Shown one piece after another: positions 26,519-27,929 of a stretch of 64,000 bases of DNA. The stretch lies in the NCBI RefSeq assembly GCF_044324875.1, contig NZ_CP172185.1; one strand, given 5' to 3'. Origin of the DNA: Escherichia coli (GTDB lineage Bacteria > Pseudomonadota > Gammaproteobacteria > Enterobacterales > Enterobacteriaceae). A model generated the notes under the pieces. It was given only the letters and a program-made list of their open reading frames with translations. It ran no database searches and had not been told where the DNA came from. The first letter of the stretch is position 1; every line of letters starts with the position of its first letter. The translations under genes and the position numbers were made by a program.

Positions 26519-26735
26519 TAACGCTACGCCTGTAAAGCGCACTGGCAGTTCCCTCTCCCCTCTGGGGAGGATCTATTGATATCAACTGATTTCAACAGAG
26601 CTAACCCCTCCCCCTTTAACCCCCTTTGAAATAAGATATCATCAGAAATTCCTTTTCTCTGGGGGTCAATCATATTCCATGAACATCAAGATGATTTTGG
26701 GGGCTATTCTGGGGGCTACATTTCAGGGGTAACTC

Positions 26736-27929
26736 ATGCCACTTACTGTTCGACAAATTGAGTCGGCTAAACCTGCTGACAAGGATTACAAACTTTCTGA
26801 CGGTCAGGGCCTTTATCTTCTTGTCAAAAAATCCGGTGCCCGTTACTGGAATCTGAAGTACCGGTTTGCCGGTAAGGAAAAGAAACTGGTGATTGGTGTC
26901 TATCCTGACATATCACTGGCTCAGGCTCGTCAGAAGCGGGATGAAGCACGTAAACTTCTGGCTGAAGGCAAAGATCCGTCGTATGAAAAACAGGCGCGAA
27001 AACTTGCCATCAGGGAAAGTATGGCCTGCACATTTCGCACCATTGCAGAGGAGCTGCTTACTCATATGGCACGTCGATGGACAACAGGTTACCAGGCAGA
27101 CCAGCGTGCAAGACTTGAAAATCATGTTTTCCCTGCTCTTGGAAACCGTCCTGTGACCGGGATCCGCCCCATGGAAATACTGAACGTCCTGAGGAGTATA
27201 GAAGAACAGGGAAAACTTGAAGCACTGCGTAAAACACGCCAGCTCTGTGCGCAGGTTTTTGATTATGCCATAGCAACAGGACGTGCAACCGTTAATCCGG
27301 CATCGACACTCAGCGGGGTACTGCTTCCTCCGGAAAAACAACAGCGCAGGACGCTTTCTGAAGAACAGATAGGAGCTTTCATGCATCAGATAACGGCTTC
27401 CGGAAATCTGATGTCGCTGGCAACGCGGATGCTGGTTTTGACTGCTGTTCGCACCGGAGAACTGCGACTGGCAACCTGGGACGAAATTAATTTCACGGAT
27501 GCCCTGTGGGTTATTCCGAAAGAAAGAATGAAAATGCGACGACCGCACGTTGTGCCGCTTTCACGCCAGGTACTGGCGTTACTGGAGGAGATAAAAACAC
27601 GCACTGAATCGCGTAATTCCGCCTTTATTATTCCCGGGGCATTCAGAAAAGATCTCCCGCGAAACCGGAAGTGTATCAATGAATTCCTTGAGCAGTCAGG
27701 CTGGCATGCCCTGACAACAGCCCACGGATTTCGTCATACCTTCAGCACCATTCTCCATGACCATGATTTCAGCTCAGCCTGGATTGAACTCCAGCTTGCC
27801 CATGTTGATAAAAACGTCATGCGTGGCACTTATAACCATGCGCAATATCTGGAGGGACGTCGTGAAATGATGCAGTGGTACGCTGATTACATTGATTCAC
27901 TTATGGAGAAAAAAGTACAAACGAAATAA
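26736..27929 (+). CDS. P4-type tyrosine integrase (phage integrase family)
   Basis: 397-aa ORF with the N-terminal arm-binding region characteristic of P4-like integrases (LSDGQGLYLLV...RYWNLKYRF) and a C-terminal catalytic domain with HGFRHT and the tyrosine region. Confidence 0.88.
   Translation: MPLTVRQIESAKPADKDYKLSDGQGLYLLVKKSGARYWNLKYRFAGKEKKLVIGVYPDISLAQARQKRDEARKLLAEGKDPSYEKQARKLAIRESMACTFRTIAEELLTHMARRWTTGYQADQRARLENHVFPALGNRPVTGIRPMEILNVLRSIEEQGKLEALRKTRQLCAQVFDYAIATGRATVNPASTLSGVLLPPEKQQRRTLSEEQIGAFMHQITASGNLMSLATRMLVLTAVRTGELRLATWDEINFTDALWVIPKERMKMRRPHVVPLSRQVLALLEEIKTRTESRNSAFIIPGAFRKDLPRNRKCINEFLEQSGWHALTTAHGFRHTFSTILHDHDFSSAWIELQLAHVDKNVMRGTYNHAQYLEGRREMMQWYADYIDSLMEKKVQTK

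Follow-up and report, generated by a model that had tools for sequence, protein, structure and literature searches.

The window analysed here, a stretch of 64,000 nucleotides of the Escherichia coli chromosome (NZ_CP172185.1), carries the ompX-rhtA-dps-glnH region followed by a large genomic island that runs off its far end. The host part ends with an intact glnH, whose product, the binding protein of the glutamine ATP-binding cassette (ABC) transporter, is 100% identical in amino acid sequence to that of K-12, and beyond it lies int, which encodes a P4-type tyrosine integrase (Int) (Table 1). The original prediction for this locus, made from the sequence alone, had placed an island boundary directly after glnH, with a P4-type integrase reading in the same direction some 215 bp further on and no tRNA gene at the junction, and all of this is borne out. 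Homology to K-12 DNA stops exactly at 26569|26570, a breakpoint obtained from the K-12 alignment that the prediction had proposed. Int carries the Pfam domains Arm-DNA-bind_3 (E = 4.6e-28), Phage_int_M (3.3e-28) and Phage_integrase (1.2e-20), and neither a tRNA nor a transfer-messenger RNA (tmRNA) gene was found anywhere in the 64 kb with ARAGORN, nor any tRNA-like match in 25300-28400 with Rfam (E≤1). What the prediction missed is the substitute for the tRNA, which is a palindromic core inside a repeat of the BoxC/PIT/TMECO family. We propose, with a probability of roughly 85%, that the window shows the left attachment site (attL) of a large integrase-borne island which entered the glnH-glnP spacer via a 13-bp core, CCCC-N3-GGGGAG, and whose integrase belongs to a clade that no longer uses the 3′ ends of tRNA genes.

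Table 1. Features at the glnH junction and in the adjoining island (positions are those of the 64-kb window).
Feature	Position	Strand	Remark
ompX-rhtA-dps-glnH region, E. coli chromosome			window reverse-complemented relative to K-12
Sigma-54-type promoter motif TGGCAC-N5-TTTCA upstream of glnH, intact	25702-25717	+	read from sequence
glnH, glutamine ABC transporter binding protein, intact	25772-26518	+	annotated glnH in matching genomes
Spacer from glnH stop to integrase start			217 bp
Host-derived left part of BoxC/PIT/TMECO repeat, CCCTCTCCCCTCTGGGGAG	26551-26569	+	K-12 alignment; TMECO consensus PMC4666352
attL core CCCC-TCT-GGGGAG, 13 bp common to attB and attP	26557-26569	+	duplicated at attR in complete relatives
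Loop TCT of attL core	26561-26563
First island bases GATCTATTGA...TCAACTGATTTCAACAGA	26570-26599	+	invariant among sister islands (alignments A1, A2)
TGGGGGTCA, repeat 1	26660-26668	+	doubtful as binding site
Tandem pair TGGGGGCTA-N3-TGGGGGCTA, period 12	26698-26706 and 26710-26718	+	candidate arm-type Int-binding site, 129-149 bp from core
int, P4-type tyrosine integrase, 397 amino acids, apparently intact	26736-27929	+
Terminator-like hairpin and T-run after int	27954-27983	+	consensus match only
Island body, running off window	26570-64000		tetratricopeptide repeat (TPR) protein, ISAs1 fragment, EcsC-family protein, outer membrane protein, yebF-like and dolP-like paralogues
Island body, continued			IS21 insertion (34051-36469), sitA remnant, IS66, myo-inositol (iol) catabolism cluster, IS110/IS3/IS21 debris from ~61000

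The match with K-12 and some 5400 other E. coli genomes breaks off at 26569, within the sequence that reads CCCTCTCCCCTATGGGGAG|AGGATTAGGGTGAGGGG in K-12. The K-12 glnH-glnP spacer continues as ...CAGTTCCCTCTCCCCTATGGGGAG AGGATTAGGGTGAGGGGCG..., and the window at the junction as ...CAGTTCCCTCTCCCCTCTGGGGAG|GATCTATTGATATC...; the purine blocks of the glnH-glnP repeat (AGGATTAGGGTGAGGGG in K-12) have moved to the far end of the island. A motif resembling the first block of the island, TCAACTGAGTTCAA, is present on the arm of the right attachment site (attR; alignments A1 and A2). The interrupted sequence belongs to the BoxC/PIT/TMECO repeats, reportedly described as intrastrand-triplex repeats by Bachellier and by Hoyne and Maher. 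Their consensus is CCCTCNCCC-N3-6-GGGNGAGGG-N3-GGGNGAGGG, from which the K-12 glnH-glnP spacer deviates at a single position (GGGAGAGGA), and the core CCCC-N3-GGGGAG corresponds to the tip of the first hairpin of this dispersed repeat. When the core was folded as a DNA hairpin, the energies were unremarkable. A search for the start of the TMECO pattern across the window returned as its sole match the perfect palindrome CCCTCTCCCGTTGGGAGAGGG (55576-55596), which resembles a first BoxC hairpin of the CCC type but is unrelated to the junction and lies within the island's iol cluster.

The direct repeat that the original prediction had suggested looking for at the island ends was found in complete relatives, in the form of the duplicated 13-bp core, though the attR of the window's own island is outside the sequence at hand. 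In strain 135, an island inserted at ycjD-fabI is 100% identical to the window from base 26551 onward. Its attL reads ...CCCTCGCCCCTCTGGGGAG|gatctattg and its attR ...tttcaccatt|CCCCTCTGGGGAG|AGGGTTAGGGTGAGGGG, followed by fabI; CCCC-TCT-GGGGAG is present at both ends, and the rejoined flanks restore K-12 TMECO no. 9, which is exactly the empty chromosomal site (attB) at ycjD-fabI. The same duplication was observed in strain 2/0, which has a 58-kb papGII island at glnH-glnP, and in TUM9803, with a 108-kb island between gcvP and ygfF, and the same pattern occurs at the glnP-proximal end in Br_112_kylling. When the left flank of attL, the core and the right flank of attR of strain 2/0 are joined, the result matches the uninterrupted glnH-glnP spacer of Nissle 1917 and many other strains at 100% identity over 135 nt; this spacer is uninterrupted in 5401 of the 5426 complete genomes. 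K-12 provides matching empty sites at glnH-glnP, ycjD-fabI, gcvP-ygfF and alx-sstT, and at ulaE in both orientations. An exact empty site together with a duplicated core points to conservative site-specific recombination rather than breakage or transposition. The island would thus have entered the glnH-glnP spacer by such recombination at CCCC-N3-GGGGAG, and the attR of this genome is predicted to read ...TTTCACCATT|CCCCTCTGGGGAG|AGGATTAGGGTGAGGGG-glnP, that is, CCCC-N3-GGGGAG|AGGATTAGGG at glnP. It had also been predicted that glnP is missing from the remaining 37 kb, and tblastn agrees: K-12 GlnP has zero matches in the 64-kb window, where GlnQ matches only distant ABC-ATPase paralogues (24-30% identity). 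The simple explanation is an island longer than 37 kb, the glnP of this genome lying outside the 64 kb; related islands are 58-108 kb long.

These junctions also bear on a quite different scenario, in which the BoxC repeat is fragile owing to its triplex structure and foreign DNA lands in it by illegitimate recombination, through breaks or replication slippage, with the integrase as a mere passenger. A higher sequence variability has been reported around TMECOs, with no mechanism given (PMC4666352), and the islands contain many insertion sequences (IS) and rearrangements, as such a scenario would have it. However, in ulaE and in eight BoxC loci the junction falls at the identical nucleotide, both ends carry a copy of the same 13 bp, and the flanks rejoin to the exact empty site. 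The element always starts with GAT(C/T)TATT and contains conserved arm repeats, with int some 167 bp from its edge, and at ulaE there is no BoxC at all but only the palindrome. We regard illegitimate recombination as very improbable.

The site-specific reading extends to other loci. An exact-sequence look-up found the identical 397-amino-acid Int in six contexts, downstream of glnH, ycjD, gcvP, yraQ and ytfQ and upstream of sstT, and all six junctions read CCCTCNCCCC-N3/4-GGGGAG|GATCTATTGA. Sister clades of Int (81-83% amino acid identity) are inserted inside ulaE, where codons 15-19 (CTC CCC GCC GGG GAG) form the palindrome by chance. Since this target lies outside the BoxC consensus, membership in the repeat family is not required for targeting, and because the ulaE codons spell the same palindrome, it is the palindromic core that is recognised and not the whole triplex-forming repeat. 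Altogether, CCCC-N3(4)-GGGGAG is conserved at the junction in 9 of 9 loci, which is not the loose target use of promiscuous integrases. The tip of the BoxC hairpin and, fortuitously, ulaE would therefore serve as attB, and the same island could occupy many loci; besides the gln and ulaE sites, CCCC-N3/4-GGGGAG is present in 14 of the 23 K-12 TMECOs. The insertions split ulaE after about codon 19 (L013/L105 and L012/L104), and the ulaE-like open reading frames that PGAP annotates there take new 5′ ends from the junctions. Ascorbate catabolism may, judging from these structures, be impaired by the ulaE insertions or rescued by fusion.

Alternatively, the integrase could be specific for one primary site, either ulaE or glnH-glnP, and the other BoxC loci could be rare secondary sites or products of homologous recombination. 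An int gene of this clade was found over at least 80% of its length in 90 of the 5426 complete genomes, in 18 of them directly after glnH, and most of the 90 seem to carry it at ulaE or glnH; the accessible part of Biggel et al. reports integrase sequences specific for the insertion site (PMC7686366), and large rearrangements between islands do occur. Yet the identical protein sits at six loci in independent assemblies, and complete, contiguous islands of 76-108 kb with a proper attL and attR were found at ycjD-fabI and gcvP-ygfF. The gln and ula sites are intact alongside the alternative ones, which therefore do not substitute for a missing primary site, and the 13-36 bp of homology make a poor substrate for RecA-dependent recombination. 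A single primary site is in our opinion unlikely. As separate observations, attR-type ends lie at BoxC repeats next to yjgR and tkt in NZ_CP033635.1 and NZ_AP045773.1, whose attL is at glnH, which suggests that each genome contains several islands or, alternatively, that islands at different BoxC loci have undergone exchanges, and rearrangements are present in ECCNB12-2 and 23CRST013.

The sites at which integration via the core is seen differ in the orientation of the island relative to the repeat, which is single at all BoxC loci, while both orientations occur at ulaE with the same Int protein. In AR_0085 (forward) the order is ulaD-ulaE′-int...DUF4942-′ulaE-ulaF, with the loop GCC at both attL and attR; in PKF11 (inverted) it is ulaF-′ulaE(rc)-int...DUF4942-ulaE′(rc)-ulaD, where rc stands for reverse complement, with GCC at attL and GGC at attR. 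The GGC loop of PKF11 corresponds to the attB loop in reverse orientation. In the other insertions attL and attR have the same loop (TCT/TCT, TTT/TTT and GCC/GCC), and at gln and ycjD-fabI this is also the loop of the local empty site. From this handful of sites, the 3-nt loop would fall in the overlap region, between two cleavage points placed symmetrically in the palindrome. Loop identity between attB and the attachment site of the element (attP) would be preferred, with a single central mismatch (C/G or C/T) tolerated and segregating. Asymmetric loops such as TCT and TTT would then fix the orientation, whereas GCC and GGC, differing only at the central base, would not.

Motif inspection of Int gave the catalytic residues R239 (RTGE), H330-x-x-R333 (HGFRH), H356 (LAHVD) and Y366 (GTYNH), the catalytic lysine being the one residue that could not be assigned with confidence; the NCBIfam PRK09692 score is below its cut-off. 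Islands with P4-like (CP4-type) integrases include the pathogenicity islands at pheV, pheU, selC and leuX, and CP4-57 at ssrA. As a rule the attB of a P4-family integrase lies in the 3′ part of a tRNA or tmRNA gene, which is not where the window integrase has it. Its clade (81-100% amino acid identity) was met here only in E. coli, and the nearest relatives in other species, drawn from a collection with one genome per species, are at most 55% identical. Of the 60 closest of these, about 48 have a tRNA gene (Phe, Arg, SeC, Gly, Thr, Ser or Asn) in the orientation of int, with its end about 165-260 bp upstream of int. Among the eight tRNA-less relative loci whose upstream sequence was inspected, seven contain tRNA 3′ fragments and one (L038) has no evident fragment. 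None of the cross-species relatives has the CTCCCC-N3-GGGGAG core. The core of the window ends 167 bp upstream of int, the same geometry as in the tRNA-targeting relatives, and, as far as can be read from the DNA, the layout matches a P4-type island that targets a tRNA gene, except that a repeat hairpin takes the place of the tRNA. Because the nearest relatives in other species are almost all about 170 bp downstream of a tRNA gene, the clade looks retargeted.

Relatives that nearly all use tRNA genes could also suggest that the island was integrated at a tRNA gene elsewhere and was later rearranged next to glnH, with the junction as a degraded tRNA-type site, and a rearrangement of 1.6 Mb, one end of which is in the island, does exist in one related genome. 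A tRNA remnant was rejected, however, as ARAGORN across the window and Rfam at the junction found neither a tRNA nor a fragment of one. As far as the junction, the host DNA is that of the native glnH-glnP spacer, and strains 2/0 and Br_112 have the displaced right half of the repeat adjoining glnP at attR. Hardly any weight can be given to such an origin. Instead, and here we lean towards the idea with some reservation, a clade of the P4 family would have given up tRNA genes in favour of the tip of the BoxC/PIT hairpin, which would give each E. coli chromosome a dozen or more docking sites for virulence or metabolic islands of 60-110 kb. This would be the first role for BoxC and would explain TMECO instability; the core being a palindrome, the 3-nt loop alone would set the orientation of the island, and Int could invert or translocate chromosome segments between islands located at different BoxC loci.

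The original prediction had pointed out three G-rich repeats upstream of int as possible arm-type sites. All three exist within 59 bp, but the middle copy reads TTGGGGGCTA instead of starting with CTGGGGG; TGGGGGYYA has four matches in the 64 kb on both strands (1.8 expected), three of them within these 59 bp. As arm-type sites, the two int-proximal copies are supported, being conserved on both arms and family-wide, and the copy at 26660 is not, since sister clades have TGGATGTCA or TGGACGTAA in its place. The tandem TGGGGGCTA pair is invariant in six islands of four clades, and at attR its counterpart is located 82-70 bp to the left of the core in 6 of the 6 right ends examined. The pair is embedded in a block of about 55 bp (TCCATGnACAnCAAnA...TGGGGGCTA...TGGGGGCTA), of which each arm has a copy in direct orientation. 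Of 75 relatives from other species, 26 have a GGGGG-N6-8-GGGGG pair some 50 bp upstream of int, the twelve closest all among them, and none of 75 control segments has one. The tandem repeats are probably arm-type sites for the conserved N-terminal arm-binding domain. Reconstructed from complete relatives, attP spans about 245 bp with tandem TGGGGGCTA sites on both arms. Two further elements were noticed on these arms. The C-rich run AACCCCTCCCCCTTTAACCCCCTTT (26603-26630), 35-60 bp inside the island, is partly conserved in sister clades and resembles, on the opposite strand, two further (A/T)GGGGG motifs in inverted orientation. The motif TCAACTGA(T/G)TTCAA (26582-26595; attR arms in alignment A2) is conserved on both attP arms and could be where an excisionase or a bending protein of the host binds.

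Several points weigh against integration through the core as we describe it. The window itself shows only attL, its attR lying beyond 64 kb, and the duplication of the core is seen in relatives only. In K-12, BoxC is absent from the ytfQ and yraQ spacers, which have repetitive extragenic palindromic (REP) sequences instead, so that these two loci have no empty-site control, and the alx-sstT loop is 4 nt long, a poor fit to an overlap of fixed length. The pairing of an attL at glnH with attR-type ends elsewhere in two genomes means that rearrangements blur the events mediated by Int. Excision, a circular attP, Int binding and the cleavage positions are all deduced from comparison of sequences. 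No excisionase gene was identified in the window, where no search aimed at Xis or AlpA was made. The island is riddled with IS elements, and its mobility in this strain may have been lost.

For the glutamine operon, the insertion would separate glnPQ from the glnH promoters by the entire island. The sigma-54-type motif upstream of glnH, which we take to be glnHp2 of K-12, is intact. Transcripts from the glnH promoters probably enter int, because the sequence has no terminator-like site on the + strand between the glnH stop and the int start. PIT elements have been reported to lack terminator activity (a result known to us through its citation in PMC4666352). In strain 2/0, glnPQ is intact at the far end of the island, after attR and following an ISEc10 insertion. 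Br_112_kylling (NZ_CP182371.1), of which the left 36 kb closely match the window, has attR-glnPQ 1.63 Mb away from glnH-int and inverted, and the left part of its island terminates, beside yejO/narP, in IS debris; the chromosome has undergone a large rearrangement here, one endpoint of which lies within the island. The terminal genes of the island at attR in Br_112_kylling are directed toward glnP, which makes expression of glnPQ by read-through from these genes possible.

Within the island, an IS21-family istA/istB element (34051-36469) is absent from the otherwise about 100% identical islands of strains 135 and HCM-27C-1, which match the window in two pieces with 89% coverage. Directly after int there is a gene for a 351-amino-acid TPR-like protein (28295-29350) with no NCBIfam match; a similar gene follows int in the gln island of strain 2/0 but not in the ula islands. 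The yebF and dolP paralogues are located at 33055-34015. We considered whether the island dolP was captured from the yraQ-dolP site and rejected this, since its product is only about 52% identical to K-12 DolP and is a paralogue. Outside the island, a variable segment of the core chromosome between ybiV and ybiT (9723-16038) carries ybiU and genes for a LacI-family regulator, a major facilitator superfamily (MFS) transporter and a TIM-barrel glycosidase, and is absent from strains 2/0 and UTME-7.

If our interpretation holds, it would provide a mechanism for the presence of pathogenicity and fitness islands in the gln and ula operons, including the papGII islands of invasive uropathogenic E. 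coli, and it predicts further landing sites for them. The BoxC/PIT/TMECO repeats, without a role for 30 years, would gain one, and the clade would represent a natural case of retargeting of a tRNA-type integrase. Insertion at glnH would uncouple glnPQ from the glnH promoters controlled by NtrC and sigma-54 and place int downstream of them, and at ulaE it splits a gene for ascorbate utilisation. Island finders anchored on tRNA genes would miss this class.

The glnH-glnP integration site as such is already known. In the accessible part of Biggel et al. (2020, PMC7686366), ‘gln (glnP-glnH)’ and ‘ula (ulaE-ulaD)’ are integration sites of papGII islands with site-specific integrases, and the glnH/glnP site is also mentioned in the corresponding part of Royer et al. 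(2021, PMC8097792). In these parts of the papGII papers the sites are named by flanking genes, and no att core, BoxC link or further loci are described. In the searchable literature, which leaves aside subscription journals, we found no account of the att core, of its identity with BoxC/PIT/TMECO, of multi-locus use or of the two ulaE orientations, and searches for BoxC, TMECO or REP with integrase or attB, and for the ycjD/fabI site, gave nothing relevant. What we describe is therefore an element of a familiar type, namely a P4-type integrase island at a site already published, whose class of target is apparently undescribed.

The islands share with the papGII islands the same two sites and the same integrase clade (the Int of the strain 2/0 gln island is 94.5% identical), but that of the window carries iol genes and a sit remnant, not pap. 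They resemble P4-type islands in the three-domain Int, in an int gene at the island edge that reads inward, in a core about 170 bp upstream of it and in the tandem G5 arm repeats, and the right-end module of YeeU/CbtA, DUF957 and DUF4942 is common to both. Unlike P4-type islands, they have a 13-bp palindromic core located in a dispersed repeat or in the ulaE reading frame, many loci for one integrase and both orientations at one site. Bartholdy et al. (2015, PMC4666352) state that neither integrases nor transposases were ever found beside TMECO repeats, and they left the link of these repeats with variability unexplained. In contrast to the prior view of BoxC/TMECO, which assigned them no function, the repeats serve here as attachment sites, those at ycjD-fabI, gcvP-ygfF and alx-sstT being K-12 TMECO nos. 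9, 11 and 13, and only the CCCC-N3-GGGGAG subtype is used. As ulaE illustrates, it is the palindrome and not the triplex-forming purine blocks that matters for targeting. Known promiscuous clades of tyrosine recombinases tolerate loose targets (PMC7192596). Like Tn916, CTnDOT and Tn4371, the islands use one integrase at many chromosomal loci; unlike them, they have the same 13-bp core at every site, so that specificity is high and it is the target itself that is repeated.

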